64,000 nt of DNA from a virus. Made by a program: the position numbers and the translations under genes. Below, piece after piece: positions 7,142 through 30,166 of the stretch (the stretch's first letter is position 1; the number at the start of each line of letters is the position of its first letter). The DNA lies in the IMG/VR virus record IMGVR_UViG_3300030099_006944, positions 1 through 64,000 of that record, one strand, 5' to 3'. A model generated the notes under the pieces. That model did not search any database and was not told where the DNA came from. It saw nothing but the letters and a program-made list of their open reading frames with translations.

Positions 7142-7251
7142 CCTGTATCTCTTCCTTCTCTTTCCTCTCTTCTATTTCATTCTGTGCCCTTATCTTATTT
7201 CCTTGGAGGCTTCATGCGACTAAGACCATATAAATAATATTTTTTTGTTCT

Positions 7252-12784: not shown

Positions 12785-14368
12785 ATGTGGTTATTGGGAA
12801 TTTTATTTGCGTGTAATGACATAACACTAACAAAAGTACAGGATCCAGAGCCTGAAATTGTGGTTTTGCCGGAGATTATTGACTTTGGCAACATAAGGTC
12901 AGGAGAAGAGACTGGTGTAGAAGAATTAACTATTGTAAATGCAGGGGACGAAGTATTATTGCTTAGTCCCTTGAATCTTATTGCGGGTAATCACCGTTTC
13001 AGCATTGATCATGATGAAACAGAAGATTGGGAGTTACAACCCGGAGAAGGAATTCAAATTGATGTCTATTATGAGCCTCAAACATATGAGAGTAATGGTG
13101 GCCTCATAGAAGTCGTTTCTAACGACGATGAGAGCCCTCAGATTGAAGTTTTAGTTCTCGGCAAGGGTGATGCCCCTGTAATGACTGTCGAGCCAATCTC
13201 GTACGATTATGGGACGATTTCAATGGGCTGTGATAATGAAGAAAGAATCACTATTAGAAATGATGGCAACTTGCCTCTCACTGTTGATAGTGTATCGCAA
13301 ATGGTAACACAACCGGTTGATATCATTATGGAATTTGGTTCTCTACCTCCGCCACCTTGGGTTCTCGACCCAAATCAAGAAGTTGACTTTCTAGTTTCTT
13401 ATATTCCATCCGATGTTGGGCTGGATGAAAGTTCTATCACAGTTATTGGTGATGACCCTCAAACGCCAGAAGTAGAAGTTAGACAATTAGGTGATGGAGT
13501 AATAGAGCAATACATAATACAAACTCACGTACAAGAAGAGATTGCAATCTTAGACATTGTTTTTGTTATTGACAATTCTGGTTCGATGAATGTCTTTCAG
13601 CAACAGTTAGCTTCTCAAATGACTTCTTTCATGAATGTTTTTCTTGCCAGTGGTGCTGATTTTCATATGGGCTTCATCACAACTGATCGCGGTTTTTTAC
13701 AATGCAGTGGCGTAATTTGTTGGATTGACAATACCTCCGCTAATCCAGTCGACTGGGCTCAGGGAGTAATATCGCAAATAAATATTGGAGGGTCTGCTGT
13801 TGAGAAAGGTATTGAAATGGCCAAAAGATTTTTTGAGAATACGAATTATGATAATGGTGGTGCCCCCGGAACTTCTTTTTGGAGGAACGATTCTACTACG
13901 GTTGTAATTTATGTATCAGACGAACCTGATTTTAGTATTGGTGGCTGGTCTGCTTATACATATTTTTTCGACACACTAAAAGCTGATGTTGATATGATGA
14001 GGCATTTTGCTGTGATTGGAGATTATCCTTCCGGTTGTGGTTTTCAGTTTGGCGGTAATTTCAGAAATATTCAATTTGGATCAGGATATTGGGATATGAC
14101 TCAACGTTATAACGGAGACTGGTATTCGATTTGTGCAACAGATTGGGGTAGTCAAATGCAAGACCTAGCAAACACTGTTACTATTAGAAGCACATTTCCA
14201 TTAGACGAACCAGATCCGATCGAATCTTCTATCATAGTCAGTGTTAATGGTCAAGTGGTTACTGGTTGGCAATATGACTCCATAAGCAATTCTGTTGTCT
14301 TCAACGAAGATTCCATTCCGGAGTCTAGTCAAACCATTACGATCGAATATGGTATCTGGGGATGCTAA
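12785..14368 (+). CDS. Putative lipoprotein: two Ig-like (ASH/choice-of-anchor D-type) domains plus VWA
   Basis: MWLLGILFA-C lipobox-like; repeats PEIIDFGNI..LTIVNAG and PISYDYGTI..ITIRNDG; LDIVFVIDNSGSM MIDAS. Confidence 0.75.
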   Translation: MWLLGILFACNDITLTKVQDPEPEIVVLPEIIDFGNIRSGEETGVEELTIVNAGDEVLLLSPLNLIAGNHRFSIDHDETEDWELQPGEGIQIDVYYEPQTYESNGGLIEVVSNDDESPQIEVLVLGKGDAPVMTVEPISYDYGTISMGCDNEERITIRNDGNLPLTVDSVSQMVTQPVDIIMEFGSLPPPPWVLDPNQEVDFLVSYIPSDVGLDESSITVIGDDPQTPEVEVRQLGDGVIEQYIIQTHVQEEIAILDIVFVIDNSGSMNVFQQQLASQMTSFMNVFLASGADFHMGFITTDRGFLQCSGVICWIDNTSANPVDWAQGVISQINIGGSAVEKGIEMAKRFFENTNYDNGGAPGTSFWRNDSTTVVIYVSDEPDFSIGGWSAYTYFFDTLKADVDMMRHFAVIGDYPSGCGFQFGGNFRNIQFGSGYWDMTQRYNGDWYSICATDWGSQMQDLANTVTIRSTFPLDEPDPIESSIIVSVNGQVVTGWQYDSISNSVVFNEDSIPESSQTITIEYGIWGC

Positions 14369-14874
14369 CCCGTCATTATAGGTGGTGGCTAATTCTTTCT
14401 GGAATTGTTGGGTTTATTTTGGGGGTGACCTTGAAAATTGCTTGGGAAGAGAGTCAGTTTATCTTAGCCGAATGGGAAGAAGACCCTATCTTAGTTATAT
14501 GTCCTGATAGTCATTTGACCAATTATCGCGTTAGTAAAGCGGTTGAATGGTGGGGAATCCGCGGATATAATATTTCATATGTGCACTGGGACAGGAGCAA
14601 CGAAATATGTTCCAACACTTGGTCACAAGGAATGATTTTGGTTCGAGGCCAAGGCGAGTTACTGCCTGATACCTATGCTATCACTTCTAGATTAACAATT
14701 ATCAACAAAATGATTTCTGCTCAAATCATACTTCCAAACGATCGTAAATTTATGCCCAGATTGTTAGAACACGAACTAGGTCACGCTTTTGGTATGAAGC
14801 ATGTAGAGAAGATTGGACACATAATGCACCCAATACATGAGCAAGGCGGAGAAAAATTTTGGATTCCAGATTAA
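14362..14874 (+). CDS. Membrane-anchored matrixin-type (metzincin) protease
   Basis: N-terminal TM; HELGHAFGMKH; Met-turn HIMHP. Confidence 0.8.
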   Translation: MLTRHYRWWLILSGIVGFILGVTLKIAWEESQFILAEWEEDPILVICPDSHLTNYRVSKAVEWWGIRGYNISYVHWDRSNEICSNTWSQGMILVRGQGELLPDTYAITSRLTIINKMISAQIILPNDRKFMPRLLEHELGHAFGMKHVEKIGHIMHPIHEQGGEKFWIPD

Positions 14875-22047: not shown

Positions 22048-22225
22048 TACAAAAATATGGCTAACATTAGACAAAGTGGAACATCAAATCAGGAGAGCGG
22101 CATACCTCGCCACAGCGGAGGAATATCAAAAAAAGATATACGATGCTCTCGACATTATAAAAGAAGTTAAAGAAGAAGTGGAAAAAAAACTTGACAAACC
22201 CAAGCCAAAAGGCTATAATATATAA
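22031..22225 (+). CDS. Small hypothetical protein
   Basis: Operon packing. Confidence 0.55.
   Translation: MSKELDTKIWLTLDKVEHQIRRAAYLATAEEYQKKIYDALDIIKEVKEEVEKKLDKPKPKGYNI
22191..22219 (+). promoter_or_regulatory. Consensus sigma70 promoter
   Basis: TTGACA-17nt-TATAAT. Confidence 0.75.
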
Positions 22226-23265: not shown

Positions 23266-23693
23266 GCGATGATTTTAGATCTAATGGTATCAAGGGTATT
23301 TTAGATTATGGCATAGATTTAAAGCTCGAATCGGAAGAGGAAGAAATATACTATACCGCCCGAATGTGCGAATATTTTAACGAAGAATCCGAATTTAAAG
23401 CCTATTTAAGTGGAGAGAAAAGTTTCGAGGTGGAACTTGACAGAACCTCTCCAATCATGGAAGTTACAATTATGAGTTCGATGCTAACAATACTACCATA
23501 TTCAGATGATATATTTGAGGCCTTCGCAGTAATGCTAGCGTTTATTGCAAAGAAGCACCAAGAAATTATAATAGAACTTAGAGGAGAAGAAGAATCCATA
23601 ATTCAATCATTAAACGAGGTTAATAAAATTGAAAATGAAAAAGAAGAAATTGAAGAAGACTCCAGTGGCGATGATGATTATGAATGGATCTAG
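23262..23693 (+). CDS. Acidic hypothetical protein
   Basis: 143 aa; ATGA overlap. Confidence 0.6.
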   Translation: MSDDFRSNGIKGILDYGIDLKLESEEEEIYYTARMCEYFNEESEFKAYLSGEKSFEVELDRTSPIMEVTIMSSMLTILPYSDDIFEAFAVMLAFIAKKHQEIIIELRGEEESIIQSLNEVNKIENEKEEIEEDSSGDDDYEWI

Positions 23694-23706
23694 GAGAACC
23701 AATACT

Positions 23707-24030
23707 ATGAAAATATTTTATTTAAACAGAACAGAAGATGAAAGCGGAATAAGCGGAACAGGCAGAGTGGCGCAAGGCTTTGTGTTTGATAATGGCAAAG
23801 TTGCTGTTACTTGGCTTTCAGAACATCCAAGCGTTACCGTGTATGATTCAATCGGAGAAGTTCATGCAATTCATGGTCACGGCGGCAAGACAGAAGTTGT
23901 AATGGAGCCGGATTACAAGAAGGCATTTGGAGAATTGAAATCCTTTGTTGATAATTTTAATATGTCAGAAGTGGTTAATTCTAAATTAACTCCCGATGGT
24001 CCGGCGTCAAAACTGATGGCAAAGGCCTAA
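23707..24030 (+). CDS. Conserved phage hypothetical protein
   Basis: RTEDESGISGTGRVAQG..HGHGGKT motif familiar from phage proteins. Confidence 0.65.
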   Translation: MKIFYLNRTEDESGISGTGRVAQGFVFDNGKVAVTWLSEHPSVTVYDSIGEVHAIHGHGGKTEVVMEPDYKKAFGELKSFVDNFNMSEVVNSKLTPDGPASKLMAKA

Positions 24031-24538: not shown

Positions 24539-24972
24539 TGAAAATAAAAAGAATAATGGTTAGCGGAGGTTTCGACCCCGTGCATATAGGTCATATTCAA
24601 ATGATCGAAAAAGCATCAGAATGGGGCGAAGTGATTGTCGTAATAAATTCTGATGATTGGCTAATGAGAAAAAAAGGTTATGTCTTTATGCCATGGAAAG
24701 AAAGAGCCTATATAATGGGTAACATCAAAGGAGTATCTTTGGTATCAGGAGTAAACGATGAAGACGGAACAGTTTGTCAAGCCATCGGAATTCACAGACC
24801 AGATGCGTTTGCAAACGGTGGAGATAGAAAAAAAGATAATACTCCGGAAATGGAGTTGTGCGATGAACTTGGCATTCAAATGATGTGGGGCGTCGGAGGA
24901 AAAGATAAACCACAATCATCATCGTGGTTAGTAAATAAAGCAATGGAGCAATTAAATGGAACTAGGAAATAA
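24538..24972 (+). CDS. Cytidylyltransferase-like nucleotidyltransferase (TagD/RfaE family)
   Basis: SGGFDPVHIGH (HIGH motif); FANGGDR; SSSW. Confidence 0.85.
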   Translation: MKIKRIMVSGGFDPVHIGHIQMIEKASEWGEVIVVINSDDWLMRKKGYVFMPWKERAYIMGNIKGVSLVSGVNDEDGTVCQAIGIHRPDAFANGGDRKKDNTPEMELCDELGIQMMWGVGGKDKPQSSSWLVNKAMEQLNGTRK

Positions 24973-25198
24973 AAATTTAGAGAATTTTCTCAAAAAAGCG
25001 GAAGAAGATCCGGAGTTGATGGAGATACTGAAAGGTATAGTTTATTACTGTCAAGCCGCTTCGGAAAAGGGTATACCCCTCGAAGAGGTAGCATCTGCCG
25101 GTACCGTTGGGTGGACAATTGGACAAGACCCTAGGTTGAAAGAAATGTTGAAACACCTAATTAAGATTAGTGAAATGGGTTTAGGAACAGAACATTAA
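24956..25198 (+). CDS. Hypothetical protein
   Basis: Operon packing; GGAG upstream. Confidence 0.55.
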   Translation: MELGNKNLENFLKKAEEDPELMEILKGIVYYCQAASEKGIPLEEVASAGTVGWTIGQDPRLKEMLKHLIKISEMGLGTEH

Positions 25199-25209
25199 TC
25201 CTTTACAAT

Positions 25210-25225
25210 CTATTTATTGTGAGGT
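25210..25225 (+). promoter_or_regulatory. Candidate late promoter/RBS 16-mer
   Basis: CTATTTATTGTGAGGT, identical to 14889-14904. Confidence 0.55.
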
Positions 25226-25233
25226 AATCTATT

Positions 25234-25464
25234 ATGTTTTTGATGTTAATTATGAATTTGGCCTTCGCCCAAGACGAAGGACGTACTGTCACGTACAAGA
25301 AAAAGACAGAAATCGACTTCGAAGGAGTTGATGTTTCTGGTGAACTCGTAAAGCCCCAAGGTGCACTTTTGCTTGATCGTAAAAGAGCCTCTTTCAATCC
25401 GTTGATTAAATTACGTTCAGACTTTAATCCGGAAATGTCCTCATCGGTGTCGGAGATTAAATAA
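25234..25464 (+). CDS. cglF: Homolog of myxobacterial gliding protein CglF/GltF
   Basis: Signal peptide ..LAFA-QD; KKKTEIDF..V.V.GEL.KP.G..R..F..LIKLRSDFNPE..SV pattern recalled from the CglF family. Confidence 0.75.
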   Translation: MFLMLIMNLAFAQDEGRTVTYKKKTEIDFEGVDVSGELVKPQGALLLDRKRASFNPLIKLRSDFNPEMSSSVSEIK

Positions 25465-26828
25465 TGTCGAAAGATATGAAAAAGATAATGGAAGCGTATC
25501 GTAAGGGTATTTTGTTGAACGAGAAACGTTATTCCATCGGTGATATTAGATACAGAAAAGACAAAAAACCTAGTGCCGACGTCAAAGGATCTGATTTTGA
25601 TAAAGACGGCGTAGAGAACCAATTTGATGATGTTCCTTTTGACGCAAATTTTCACGATATAGATGGAGTAGATCAGGAAAAATTTGCGGACGCAGTCGGA
25701 GTAGATCCGAATGTTATAGGGAGAGGAATAACCGATACCCTATCAGATAAATTTAAAGATTATTATAAGAGTCAAGGTGTTGAAAACCCGCGAGATATAA
25801 CAGAGCCAATACCCGCTGGTCCAGATCCAGATCAAGAAAAATCAGCAGACGGAGATCAAGAACCATCTACTGACCTAGACCAAGAAGAGATAGCTGCCGC
25901 GTTAACGACACTGGATCCGTCCAACTTCGGAAAAGGGGCCAAAGCAGTTTACAATGATGGAGAAGTTACTGTTTTTGAGTTTATGGAGTGGATGTCGGGC
26001 CGTGAGTTATTGAAGAGTAATTTTGAAAGGTTCAAAGAAAACCTTCAAACATTTGCCCAAAATTTTGCAGAAAAAAACCCTAAGATAGTAAAAATGCTCC
26101 CGGGCGATGCCACACTAAGAGGTTTGATTGGACAAACTATAACTTTTTTCGAGGAGCAAGGTTATGCATTATTAAAGGGCGGCGCCAAAGGAGGCCTCTT
26201 GGATGTGATAGCAGGGATTCTTGATCAAGCCGGTGTACCTAACACATTAGGATTCCGAAGAATGCTAGCCAGAGTGATAAGCGCAGCCATAATCCAAACA
26301 GCAACAGATAAGGCAGAAGATATTGTTGATGGTGTAATTAAAAAATTAACAGATTCATCTAATTCGTTAAAGAGAAAATCTATGAAGATCATGACCGTCG
26401 GTGACGACGGCAAACCAGTGTTAAAATACAACCAAGACATCCAAGAAATGTTTGACGTGCCGGAGGAGATTGTGAAAATGTTCCAAGGGAAATTACAAGA
26501 CAACGGACAAAGACTAATCAGTAAGTTTTTTAATGAATATAGAACAAATCTAGTTAAAATATTCGAAATGGCAAAAGAGGCAACTAGCGATCCGAAGAAG
26601 TATCAGAACATCATTAATCAAGATCTAACAGAATTTCTAAAAGATCAAGACACAAGCACCAATGCTGCCAAAGACGCGTTGGAATATATAAGAAATGCTT
26701 ACAATTTAAAAGGAATAAAGGTCACAACGAAAGCCAATGATGAGAAAGGAACGTCTTCTCGTACTGTCACTGCTGGTACTGTGAATGAATCCAAGCGTCG
26801 TCGCATAGTATACCGAGGAAAGAAATGA
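25464..26828 (+). CDS. MSKDMK-tagged protein with Ca-binding-like motif
   Basis: MSKDMKKIMEAYRKGILLNE; DFDKDGVENQFDDVP (TSP3-like). Confidence 0.7.
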   Translation: MSKDMKKIMEAYRKGILLNEKRYSIGDIRYRKDKKPSADVKGSDFDKDGVENQFDDVPFDANFHDIDGVDQEKFADAVGVDPNVIGRGITDTLSDKFKDYYKSQGVENPRDITEPIPAGPDPDQEKSADGDQEPSTDLDQEEIAAALTTLDPSNFGKGAKAVYNDGEVTVFEFMEWMSGRELLKSNFERFKENLQTFAQNFAEKNPKIVKMLPGDATLRGLIGQTITFFEEQGYALLKGGAKGGLLDVIAGILDQAGVPNTLGFRRMLARVISAAIIQTATDKAEDIVDGVIKKLTDSSNSLKRKSMKIMTVGDDGKPVLKYNQDIQEMFDVPEEIVKMFQGKLQDNGQRLISKFFNEYRTNLVKIFEMAKEATSDPKKYQNIINQDLTEFLKDQDTSTNAAKDALEYIRNAYNLKGIKVTTKANDEKGTSSRTVTAGTVNESKRRRIVYRGKK

Positions 26829-29800
26829 ACAATAAAGAACTTTTAATCGAGTTATACAGCCACCCATTAGTCCAACGAATGCTTATCAAGGAACTTTTGA
26901 CCAAGCGTCAATTAGTAGAATTGGTTTTGTTGGAGAAGAAAAAATGGTATCACGGCCCATGGTACAAAGAAAAAGAAGAAACAACCTTAGACCGAAGAGA
27001 CAAAGCAGATAGAAACACATCTAAGATAGCTTCAACAGTAAAATCAAAAATAGATTCATGGACGAAGCCTCTCGGGGGCAAAGCCGATGAATTAATAGAC
27101 CCAGAAAAAAAAATAAGCAAAAAGACTTACGATGGCGCTTTTAAAAAGACAAAGAGAGAAATTGCCGCCAAGCTAGACGAAAAATCGAAATCCAAACAAA
27201 AGGTTTATTCCAAAACAGGGACAGATGCGACGGGGTCTAAATATACAAAAGAAGGTGGTATCTATTACACAAAACAAGATAAAAGTAAAGGGTCGGATCT
27301 CGCAAATATCTTTAAAGACCTTTCAAGTTCCCTAGGGAAACCGAAATTTCAGGGTAACACAATAAACAGACCAACAGTGACATTCTTGTTGTGGTTCAAA
27401 AAAGTTTCCGAGCTAGATTGGAACAATTTCAAGACAGAAACGGAAGCATCAGTCATACAAGAATCAAAAAATCCGAAAAAGTTTTTAGAGAGAACTCAGA
27501 AAAATCTTGAACAAATTGCCCTTGAAATTGGATTAAAAATAGTAAAGCAAGCTATGGATGATTTAATAAACGACAAAGACCTATCGGAAGAAGTGAGAGA
27601 ATACGCTGAAAAAAATATTCCGAAGTATATGAAAGCTCGAAAGGATGCTTCTAATAACTGGACAGACCCAAACCACCAGTTTAGATCTTTGCTTCTGGCG
27701 TTAGGAGAATCATCGCAAGATTTTTATGAAAAATACCTAAAATTAAACGACACTAGATGGCTTGATAAATTGGAGAAAGAAGAACGGGCAGCTATCAAGA
27801 GATTTATAAAGCTTTATAAAGCAGAGTTTTTAGCTAAAAAATGGCAAAACACACAAGAAATCAATGAACAGGACGAGGGAGAAAACGATGGGTTGCAAAC
27901 TTTTTTGGGCTTAGAGGTCTTCGCGAAAGAGTTATCAAAGTCACAAGCAACAGAGATCTGGAACAAACTTGATGATGCAGAGAAACAAATCATAGTTAAT
28001 TTGGTGAAAGAATATCCAGAGGGTTTTAACAAATACCTTTATGGAAGAGCAGATACTCATGGGGATATTTGGGGCCTCGAAGATGAAATGAGTAACAGAC
28101 TTATTAGAGCCTCAGAAGAAGAAATAGAAAAAGCCAAAGAGCGTCTCGAAATGGAAAAGAGACAAAAGAAAGAAAAAGAAGAAAAATATGAAAAAACCCG
28201 AGGATCCTTGAAGAAGATCCTTCCTTTTGCAATAAACAAATCTGCGCGATTAATCAAGGCTTTGGAAAAGATGGTGTCTTTCTTAGACAAAGATACGTTA
28301 AAAGATCCCGGAGGACCAGAGCTTGGAAAAAGAGAGTTCGTATCAGAAGATATGAATCCTCCAATGAAAAGTAGACAACAAATCAAAGATCAACTAGAAA
28401 AAGAATTAAAATATCAAAAAGAATTAATGAAGTTGTTGGAGTTTTATTTCAAAGTATTTGTACAAGAGAAAGACAAGCTCCAAGATGCTAATTTTCTAGA
28501 TCAAATGATATTGAAGGCAAAAAATATCGTAAGAATGATGAAAGAGATTCTAGCAGATGCATCTGATTCCATAAAGACAAAGTTCGTTGGTGGTGATGAA
28601 GAAGGTACCCAAGAACAAGCGGAAGAGGTCTTGGAGACAGAACCAGAGCAAGCAGTTAACGAGCAACAATCCGGCACTTCTGCAATCGATAATGCAAACG
28701 AGTGGATACAGGCAATAGAATCTTTAATAAGAGACAATTATACTCGCTTAGAGAGAGTTTATGGCGAAACCAAGAAGGTACTATCTGATCTCAAAAAGGG
28801 TCAATTTGAACTGTCCTCTGAGTTACAAGATATCTTGAATAGAACCCTAGGTAGCAAAGTCATTGATTTGTTTGACAAGGCCTTGTCGGACCTCAAAAAC
28901 AATTTACCGATGGAAGATTATAAAACTAAACTTAAAAACATATCCGATCTAGAAAACCGCGACTTAGTGGGCTTAAAACCTGACGTCGAACCGGTAACAG
29001 AAGCTCCCGAAGATCAAGAAACCCAGCCTGCTAACAAAGAACAAGCCCAAAGAGAATTCATCCGTACGTACGATACTTTTGAATCCCATAAAAATGTAAC
29101 ATTAAAAGCTTTGGAGGGCCTTCGAAGGAGTCTCGATTCTGTCGATCAAGAAAAATACTTTGCATTCTTTCAATTAGCCGGTAAGACAGCAGAGAAGATT
29201 ACAGAATATGATAATTCGCTAAACGAGATAAAGAAGTTTCTGGCAAACCCGACAAACGTACCGGACTATATTAAAATAGGAGAAAAAGTCAGAAAGAAAG
29301 AAGAATTGATCCCTAAGCAAGGAAAACAACTTATACCAGCAAAATATGCCGAACAAATTAAGAATTCCATTGGTCAACAAGATGAGTTGAAGAGACTCTA
29401 CGATGATCAACAAGGACAAGGTGGTTTGTCAATGGAAAAAGTAGAAGAATATATGTCTGACGTCTCGCTGGTTATCGATGTTTTATCCGCTGCTTCCGCC
29501 GCAACCGGTGTAGGCCTTCCAGCAGCCGCTGCTCTCCAAGCCTTAGGTAAAGCTTTGACGGTAGGAGAGATAGCAAAGAAACTAGCAGATGGTGACTTTG
29601 CAGGAGCCGGTACCAAAGCAGTACTGATGCTGATGCCCGGAGAAAAAATAGCTAAATATTTAGGCGGAGCCGCTGGGAAGGTTGCCGCAAACTCATTTGG
29701 AAAATTCCTCAAACCGCTATCGGATTTTATGATAAAAAATCCAGACAAAGCTGGCGGTGTTATTGATTTATTAATAACGGGAGTTGGGCAAAAATTAGAC

Positions 29801-30166
29801 AACGACGACACACCTGAGGAGACAACAGGAACACCTGCCGGAAAGATAGAGAAAGCCAAAACTGAACTAGAAGAATTAAAAGAAGCCATAGGCAAAACCA
29901 ACGCAGCTGATGATCAAAAGAAAAAATGGATTGCATTTATTAACGATGCAGTGAATAGAACGGTTGCTATGGGCGAAGAAGATCTAACCGATGAACAATA
30001 TTTGAAAATATTGCTCGATGCAAAGCAAACTATAACCAACCAGATCAAGCAATTTCAGAACAATCAGGGAAACGAACCCAAACAAGAACACATAGAGCGA
30101 GCATTAAAGCCGATAATAGAACAACTACTAAGAGGTAAACATGGCGAAAAAGAACTTTATTATTGA
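26825..30166 (+). CDS. 1113-aa helical protein, candidate internal/ejection protein
   Basis: Repeated hydrophobic-x-E junctions; Gly/Ala-rich hydrophobic segment near the C-terminus. Confidence 0.65.
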   Translation: MNNKELLIELYSHPLVQRMLIKELLTKRQLVELVLLEKKKWYHGPWYKEKEETTLDRRDKADRNTSKIASTVKSKIDSWTKPLGGKADELIDPEKKISKKTYDGAFKKTKREIAAKLDEKSKSKQKVYSKTGTDATGSKYTKEGGIYYTKQDKSKGSDLANIFKDLSSSLGKPKFQGNTINRPTVTFLLWFKKVSELDWNNFKTETEASVIQESKNPKKFLERTQKNLEQIALEIGLKIVKQAMDDLINDKDLSEEVREYAEKNIPKYMKARKDASNNWTDPNHQFRSLLLALGESSQDFYEKYLKLNDTRWLDKLEKEERAAIKRFIKLYKAEFLAKKWQNTQEINEQDEGENDGLQTFLGLEVFAKELSKSQATEIWNKLDDAEKQIIVNLVKEYPEGFNKYLYGRADTHGDIWGLEDEMSNRLIRASEEEIEKAKERLEMEKRQKKEKEEKYEKTRGSLKKILPFAINKSARLIKALEKMVSFLDKDTLKDPGGPELGKREFVSEDMNPPMKSRQQIKDQLEKELKYQKELMKLLEFYFKVFVQEKDKLQDANFLDQMILKAKNIVRMMKEILADASDSIKTKFVGGDEEGTQEQAEEVLETEPEQAVNEQQSGTSAIDNANEWIQAIESLIRDNYTRLERVYGETKKVLSDLKKGQFELSSELQDILNRTLGSKVIDLFDKALSDLKNNLPMEDYKTKLKNISDLENRDLVGLKPDVEPVTEAPEDQETQPANKEQAQREFIRTYDTFESHKNVTLKALEGLRRSLDSVDQEKYFAFFQLAGKTAEKITEYDNSLNEIKKFLANPTNVPDYIKIGEKVRKKEELIPKQGKQLIPAKYAEQIKNSIGQQDELKRLYDDQQGQGGLSMEKVEEYMSDVSLVIDVLSAASAATGVGLPAAAALQALGKALTVGEIAKKLADGDFAGAGTKAVLMLMPGEKIAKYLGGAAGKVAANSFGKFLKPLSDFMIKNPDKAGGVIDLLITGVGQKLDNDDTPEETTGTPAGKIEKAKTELEELKEAIGKTNAADDQKKKWIAFINDAVNRTVAMGEEDLTDEQYLKILLDAKQTITNQIKQFQNNQGNEPKQEHIERALKPIIEQLLRGKHGEKELYY

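Follow-up and report, generated by a model that had tools for sequence, protein, structure and literature searches.

GltF of Myxococcus xanthus (MXAN_4868) consists of 89 amino acids and has a signal peptide but lacks a membrane span, and its gene is one of those confined to Myxococcales and Bdellovibrionales (PMC3169522). It is the same protein as CglF (PMC4488436). Individual glt mutations abolish gliding, GltD clusters are lost without gltF, and a functional GltF-mCherry fusion is found at the focal adhesion clusters in an AglQ-dependent manner (PMC3169522). In an AlphaFold-based model GltF is largely disordered, its C-terminal helix being placed in a crevice of GltC while one strand runs alongside, and parallel to, a strand in GltG's TonB-like C-terminal domain (PMC11761067). 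According to this model GltF bridges the outer-membrane platform and the periplasmic/inner-membrane part of the machine, yet its authors themselves point to the lack of biochemical evidence for such a periplasmic complex (PMC11761067); the published contacts of GltF are predictions.

Two further systems bear on the virus-borne relative of GltF described here. Host-derived auxiliary genes of T4-like marine phages, as exemplified by cyanophage psbA, replace a component of the host during infection. The TonB box, in turn, pairs as a strand with the C-terminal domain of TonB, an interaction which is exploited by colicins and phages.

The gene is located in a window of 64,000 nucleotides, which constitutes the first 64 kb of a 187,355 bp IMG/VR virus record (IMGVR_UViG_3300030099_006944) rated 100% complete by CheckV. 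This genome, whose GC content amounts to 39.6% (about 39% for its gltF copy), encodes the T4 Gp23 capsid protein (PF07068, E 2.1e-61, genome positions 113385-114173), a PhoH-like gene, glycosyltransferases, one tRNA and a tmRNA. About 95% of it is covered by ORFs on one strand, and psbA, which was looked for in the whole genome, is absent. These observations support a T4-like virus of Straboviridae type as the source of the record and gltF as a phage-borne gene, in agreement with the claim of the initial annotation, made from the sequence of the window, that the protein is phage-encoded. A DNA-level search of deposited phages (megablast) returned no resembling genome; in the gp23 region a stretch of only about 130 nt aligns with Flavobacterium phages, at about 71% identity, and gives no clue to the host. 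None of 50,697 deposited phage records encodes a relative of the 76 amino acid protein (tblastn), nor did we find a publication on phage-borne GltF or CglF, in support of the initial annotation, to which no described phage example was known. A preprint on myxophage auxiliary genes, which is not among the GltF/CglF papers found, names gliding motility twice, in passing.

The gltF/cglF-like gene occupies 25234..25464 of the window on the + strand, stop codon included. It runs from an ATG at 25234 to a TAA at 25462-25464, encodes 76 amino acids, is preceded by a Shine-Dalgarno-like GAGG (25221..25224, + strand, 9 nt 5' of the ATG, as read from the sequence) and overlaps with its stop codon the ATG of the following gene (25464). 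In a profile search its product matches NF033764, the NCBIfam family of CglF (= GltF), with an E value of 3.9e-14 and 52.4 bits, residues 11-75 aligning to positions 16-88 of the 88 profile positions. The initial annotation had described a CglF pattern over the mature part of a secreted 76 amino acid protein and had proposed a profile comparison with GltF; this comparison turned out to be significant, though its score lies below the curated equivalog cut-off of the family (52.4 versus 90 bits). A six-frame search of the whole phage genome with NF033764 returned gltF as the sole match (E 1.1e-14), none of 14 unrelated genomes used as controls contained a match at E <= 0.001, and searches of Pfam and PHROGs with the 76 amino acid protein gave zero matches. 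Since most positional orthologues from Myxococcota also score below 90 bits, the sub-threshold score reflects distance from Myxococcus and not a different family: of 201 genomes sampled from that phylum, 151 yield at least one match to the family, in many cases two or three, but only 3 of the 201 rise above 90 bits, and none of 21 relatives exceeds this cut-off. The six members with the highest scores in this sample (87-101 bits; three exceed the cut-off) are 36-48% identical to the phage protein. On the basis of its sequence, membership of the phage protein in the CglF/GltF family is supported.

As judged by inspection and by alignment with cellular homologues, residues 1-12 (25234..25269, + strand) form a predicted Sec signal peptide, whose mean Kyte-Doolittle value is 2.27 versus -0.66 for the remainder of the protein. 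The leader ends with AFA, Q13 being the first residue of the predicted mature part, and an AFA-Q(D/E) junction is common to the phage protein and its cellular homologues. The 64 residues of the mature part (13-76) are hydrophilic and balanced in charge. The signal peptide is of predicted type I, has no lipobox and is short, and its n-region contains neither lysine nor arginine; both are absent from the first eight residues in 37% of the phage copies versus 1% of the cellular ones. Like GltF of M. xanthus, the phage protein is small (inspection and alignment place it with proteins of about 80-90 amino acids which have a type I signal peptide and no membrane span) and shares the same core and C-terminal motifs. 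Unlike its M. xanthus counterpart, it has a shorter leader devoid of a basic n-region, and its gene stands alone instead of being part of a gltD-E-F-G-H operon.

Among one-per-species genomes 138 stretches encode a GltF relative, the best 80 of which are 59-83% identical to the phage protein. In all of these best 80 loci glt genes adjoin the match, namely those of GltG (74 of 80), GltH (66 of 80), GltE (65 of 80), GltD (62 of 80) and GltC (52 of 80), individual neighbours being missing in some loci because the contigs are short. One of them (L005) encodes, in this order, a GltC-like protein, a TPR protein at the position of GltD, a GltE-like protein, the CglF-like protein, a GltG-like protein with an AgmX/PglI C-terminal domain, a CglE/GltH-like protein and a choice-of-anchor-D protein, which, to judge from the sequences, is the gltD-E-F-G-H order of M. 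xanthus with gltC joined on. Its GltF (L005:7965-8225), a positional orthologue, is 76% identical to the phage protein and attains practically the score of the latter on NF033764 (53.1 bits), and the GltC, GltE and GltG proteins of L005 likewise fall below their own equivalog cut-offs. The phage protein resembles GltF from aquatic Myxococcota MAGs (L004, L005, L018) in its sequence (59-83% identity), in its mature length, in the AFA-Q junction and in the invariant residues. Unlike the MAG genes, which are flanked by gltE and gltG and belong to genomes with a GC content of 45-73%, the phage copy is of about 39% GC and shows near-saturated synonymous divergence. A CglF match is not lacking, nor do the homologues reside mostly in unrelated taxa; the initial annotation had named the lack of a match, or homologues mostly in non-gliding taxa, as speaking against its reading.

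The MAG records are labelled inconsistently, 22 as Myxococcota, 15 as Deltaproteobacteria, 16 as “Enterobacterales” and the remainder otherwise, and many records with a full glt cluster and 56-73% GC carry wrong-looking labels such as Enterobacterales, Klebsiella pneumoniae, Rhodobacterales or Cognaticolwellia. The differently labelled MAGs G002 and G004 are near relatives of G001. Since glt genes are present at all loci and the recovered cellular GltG C-terminal domains are 79-100% identical, we treated these MAGs as one lineage. In a quick tree the small clade of the studied phage is placed within the branch which holds all cellular sequences, beside two MAG loci of 45% GC, and the remaining 74 viral copies are found outside this branch. 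A tree constrained to unite all viral copies reaches a higher likelihood than the free tree (p-AU 0.795, 81 usable columns). A single capture and several captures of gltF are both compatible with these 81 alignment columns.

The survey of phage databases suggested by the initial annotation yielded, next to the deposited records without any relative, 100 stretches in IMG/VR which encode one, the best 80 being 46-82% identical to the phage protein. A word-indexed search returned 1489 clusters of homologues at 90% identity, mostly of 76 amino acids and many of them from Tara or other marine samples, and an exhaustive search of 50%-identity representatives returned 669 homologues at E <= 0.001. 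Nearly all of these 669 proteins comprise 70-105 amino acids and contain a signal peptide and both motifs; in a few cases the homologous part is embedded in a protein of 500-1350 amino acids. No other glt gene occurs within 6 kb in 80 viral loci or anywhere in the whole genome of the studied phage, and the position between gltE and gltG, which is that of the nearest cellular homologues, is not the one of phage gltF. Three viral gltF loci which we inspected are situated on contigs of 185-203 kb, on one of which gltF adjoins the genes of the T4 portal protein, the terminase and the prohead protease, and most viral loci have further genes in common with the studied phage.

The neighbourhoods of gltF differ between phage lineages and for this reason give no functional hint. 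Within the clade of the studied phage, the order is fixed and comprises a phosphomannomutase-like hydrolase, an Acb5-like protein, sometimes an HNH endonuclease, a cytidylyltransferase, an ORF of 80 amino acids, gltF, a variable insert and PhoH. The part of it which extends from the CTP-transferase via the 80 amino acid ORF, gltF and the variable insert to PhoH is kept in five independent assemblies. The 80 amino acid ORF (24956..25198, + strand), which always precedes gltF in this clade (L167, L168, L169, L084, L086), has a sub-threshold Nif11 match only. The insert (25464-30166, + strand) contains two large genes of 454 and 1113 amino acids without a family match, the first of which is listed at 25464..26828 (+ strand); in relatives the same slot accommodates genes of 305 and 577 amino acids, or of 128, 62, 652 and 621 amino acids, or no genes. 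Three genes 5' of gltF, the product of 23629-24030 (+ strand) matches phrog_7499, and its counterpart in close relatives has PF26761 (Acb5).

The late-promoter context which the initial annotation had assigned to the gene is not supported. The T4-type late-promoter motif TATAAATA is absent near gltF, the nearest + strand copies being located at 7229 and 40128, and the 35-nt gap upstream of gltF contains no sigma-70-like site of 9/12 or better. What precedes the ATG is similar to the ribosome-binding region of the capsid gene rather than to a promoter. The nearest strong promoter-like site, at the same time the only perfect sigma-70 consensus (TTGACA-17-TATAAT at 22191..22219, + strand; a consensus match only), is found 3 kb upstream of an unbroken run of same-strand genes which includes gltF. 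Enrichment of upstream k-mers revealed sigma-70-like early motifs only. Three short contigs from one marine RNA run fall at 23578-23886 and 26319-26463, none of them over gltF.

Column conservation delineates two parts of the protein, a core formed by residues 21-45 (Y-K-x-x-T-E-I-D-F-E ... G-E-L-V-K-P-Q-G; 25294..25368, + strand) and a C-terminal part formed by residues 54-76 (F-N-P-L-I-K-L-R-x-D-F ... S-V-x-E-I-K; 25393..25461, + strand). By alignment, the core would correspond to the GltF strand modelled on the TonB-like C-terminal domain of GltG, and the C-terminal part to the predicted helix in the crevice of GltC. Comparing 79 distinct cellular with 66 distinct phage sequences, we found columns Y21, T25-E30, G36, L38, K40 and P41 to be invariant in both sets. 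All orthologue-invariant residues are kept in the studied protein (Y21, T25, E26, D28, F29, E30, G36, E37, K40, P41, R49, F54, P56, I58, R61, E67 and S71), and the 66 phage sequences retain nearly all cell-invariant columns, the few changes being conservative (V34I, D48E and E37 to T or Q). Pairs of phage gltF genes with 80-85% DNA identity exhibit dS values of 0.95-1.4 and dN values of 0.04-0.09 (dN/dS 0.04-0.07); in more distant pairs the synonymous sites are saturated, the proteins still being 70-80% identical. Phage gltF is under strong purifying selection. The AlphaFold2 model of the monomer is coil except for a helix at residues 65-72 (pLDDT 66, pTM 0.19), which would fit an adaptor that folds on binding. 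A complex prediction for the GltG C-terminal domain of L005 and the mature phage protein (residues 13-76) attained a median score of 0.27, the mark being 0.32, a value which speaks neither for nor against binding.

With regard to the host, the gene points to aquatic Myxococcota, and we consider a host from this phylum fairly probable. The Myxococcota-like host proposed in the initial annotation is in line with the glt clusters in which the nearest relatives are found. In addition, the phage tmRNA (genome positions 149954-150363, outside the window), which is followed by tRNA-Gly(GCC), encodes the tag ANNNLYFEEALAA, and four of the MAGs with the closest GltF have resembling tags of the form ANNN(K/Q/A)HFA(L/V)AA. 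Independently of GltF, the common ANNN start weakly backs such a host. The GC content of the phage compared with that of the MAG loci (39.6% versus 45-73%) mildly speaks against it, a gap of a kind which T4-like cyanophages likewise show to their hosts.

We slightly favour the view that phage gltF is a host-derived auxiliary gene whose mature product enters a Glt-type machine at the place of GltF, as a working substitute. The 76 amino acid precursor would be exported via Sec in the infected cell and cleaved after AFA, and the mature chain of 64 residues would replace host GltF. Of its two contact elements, the core strand would bind to GltG, at the TonB-like C-terminal domain, and the C-terminal helix to GltC, a docking which would couple the inner-membrane motor side to the outer-membrane platform. 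In this manner the phage copy may keep or raise the supply of adaptor while gene expression in the host fails, leaving the machine coupled until lysis. This role is favoured because both contact elements and all invariant residues are kept under purifying selection. The shortness of the signal peptide, with no positive charge in its n-region, counts against this view, as does the GC gap to the putative hosts. Like cyanophage psbA, gltF is a lone subunit of a multi-protein host machine, is carried by a T4-like phage, is under purifying selection and is widespread in marine viromes; unlike psbA, it would encode a structural adaptor of an envelope motility-type machine and not a metabolic or photosynthetic component. 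We know of no rapid turnover of GltF.

A two-ended adaptor in excess can uncouple its partners, for which reason conservation of both ends does not separate a protein which sustains the machine from one which jams it. Excess phage GltF might saturate GltG and GltC separately or act as a soluble decoy resembling a TonB box; as a consequence, motility would be frozen or the energised envelope route of competing phages would be shut (superinfection exclusion). Such interference strikes us as unlikely, albeit deserving serious attention. It would be in keeping with the presence of the host protein's conserved binding elements in the phage protein, with gltF being a singleton without a partner gene, with the shortened leaders which the phage copies have of their own, and with the known inhibition of TonB-dependent uptake by free TonB-box peptides. 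A blocker, however, would need one contact element only, while both are kept at a dN/dS of about 0.05, and the phage copy matches the cellular consensus at every invariant position. We thus judge a working substitute somewhat more likely than a blocker. Of the effects suggested in the initial annotation, an altered gliding of infected cells and a blocked Glt receptor are conceivable; a transfer of the protein to neighbouring cells finds no support, and the protein lacks a lipobox. As to the likeness to the TonB box itself, GltF is modelled as a short unfolded segment which pairs as a beta strand with a TonB-like domain (PMC11761067); unlike the TonB box of a receptor plug or a toxin, it is free in the periplasm and has GltC as a further partner.

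A CglF-like motif is also embedded in the large metagenomic proteins P0188, P0159, P0172, P0207 and P0154, the last of which adjoins PSCyt2/PSD2/DUF1501 genes; this neighbourhood indicates use of the motif outside Myxococcota, too. P0188 combines a VWA region and the CglF motif with a C-terminal AgmX/PglI domain in one polypeptide, and other large proteins join VIT-VWA regions to a CglF-like motif. Fusions of this kind, represented by few sequences, would be expected if the CglF motif and the AgmX/PglI domain work together.

The motif might accordingly be regarded as a general docking peptide for AgmX/PglI/TonB-like domains, in which case the phage could have a non-myxobacterial host or address another TonB/Tol-like system, unrelated to gliding. 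The occurrence of CglF-like motifs within large VIT-VWA “sortase target” relatives and within a 971 amino acid protein from a PSCyt2/PSD2/DUF1501 neighbourhood argues for this explanation, as does the GC content of the phage, which is far below that of Myxococcota MAGs. We nevertheless deem it improbable: the closest free-standing small homologues (up to 83% identity) are all situated in glt clusters, the motifs within large proteins are less closely related (27-42 bits on NF033764), the phage and four MAGs share the start of the tmRNA tag, and the GC gap has its parallel in the T4-like cyanophages mentioned above. A mis-assembled bacterial fragment or a dead passenger, i.e. a recent functionless capture, can practically be dismissed, since the phage-like GC content (0.32-0.45 for the gltF copies in loci of 0.33-0.45; 39.6% for the phage genome) and the selection on amino acids exclude both, in addition to which the synteny is repeated in independent assemblies from different samples, there are 100 confirmed viral loci and 1489 protein clusters, and synonymous sites are near saturation with the amino acids kept.

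Beyond the role of a working substitute for GltF, a second gene of the window merits consideration. It encodes a predicted lipoprotein of 527 amino acids (MWLLGILFAC..., lipobox L-F-A-C; 12785..14368, + strand) with two ASH/choice-of-anchor-D Ig-like domains and a VWA-like region which contains a D-x-S-x-S motif (D-N-S-G-S) and has a VWA_2 score of 23.0, below the cut-off of 27. Weak matches to CglD and to a Bdellovibrio MIDAS adhesin were obtained, and the gliding adhesins CglB and CglD possess a domain of the VWA/MIDAS type. At E <= 1e-5 the lipoprotein has 503 relatives; identity reaches 52% or more over nearly the full length in at least 120 of these, and part of them are encoded on contigs that also bear gltF. 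In six other viral loci a full-length relative is encoded at a distance of 1-3 kb from gltF; eight further loci contain partial matches within about 6 kb of it. All five other large gltF-bearing phage records tested contain the lipoprotein, which makes six genomes together with the studied phage. In cells, a choice-of-anchor-D gene is located 3' of gltH; the likeness of the phage lipoprotein to its product is restricted to the domain level (22-27% identity, BLASTP E 0.001 to L005), and orthology is not claimed. Directly 3' of the lipoprotein gene, an ORF of 170 amino acids (14362-14874, + strand) matches a zinc-metalloprotease motif below the threshold, with E values of 2.4e-4 for Matrixin and 0.0085 for the family of myxosortase-dependent metalloproteases, and phage L186 harbours a Trypsin_2 protease in the corresponding place between lipoprotein and gltF.

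A functional link between this lipoprotein and gltF is put forward purely as a hypothesis. In such a case, the phage would supply two parts, namely GltF and a surface lipoprotein of its own with Ig-like and VWA regions, the latter being displayed as an adhesin through the re-coupled Glt machine. This idea, which we rate as a long shot, is prompted by the co-occurrence of both genes in six genomes, their proximity of 1-3 kb in six other loci and the VWA-GltF-AgmX/PglI fusions. If it were true, the adhesion or movement of infected cells or their contact with neighbours would be altered.

The auxiliary genes of phages are known mostly for metabolism; a structural adaptor for an envelope-spanning machine of the motility type, supplied by a phage, would represent a new target class. 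In addition, gltF would be a specific host marker for very abundant uncultured large T4-like phages of marine and freshwater habitats, pointing to Myxococcota, a phylum whose aquatic viruses are, to our knowledge, almost unknown. Finally, the GltG-GltF-GltC bridge has so far been a prediction, of which phage GltF would constitute a natural test.
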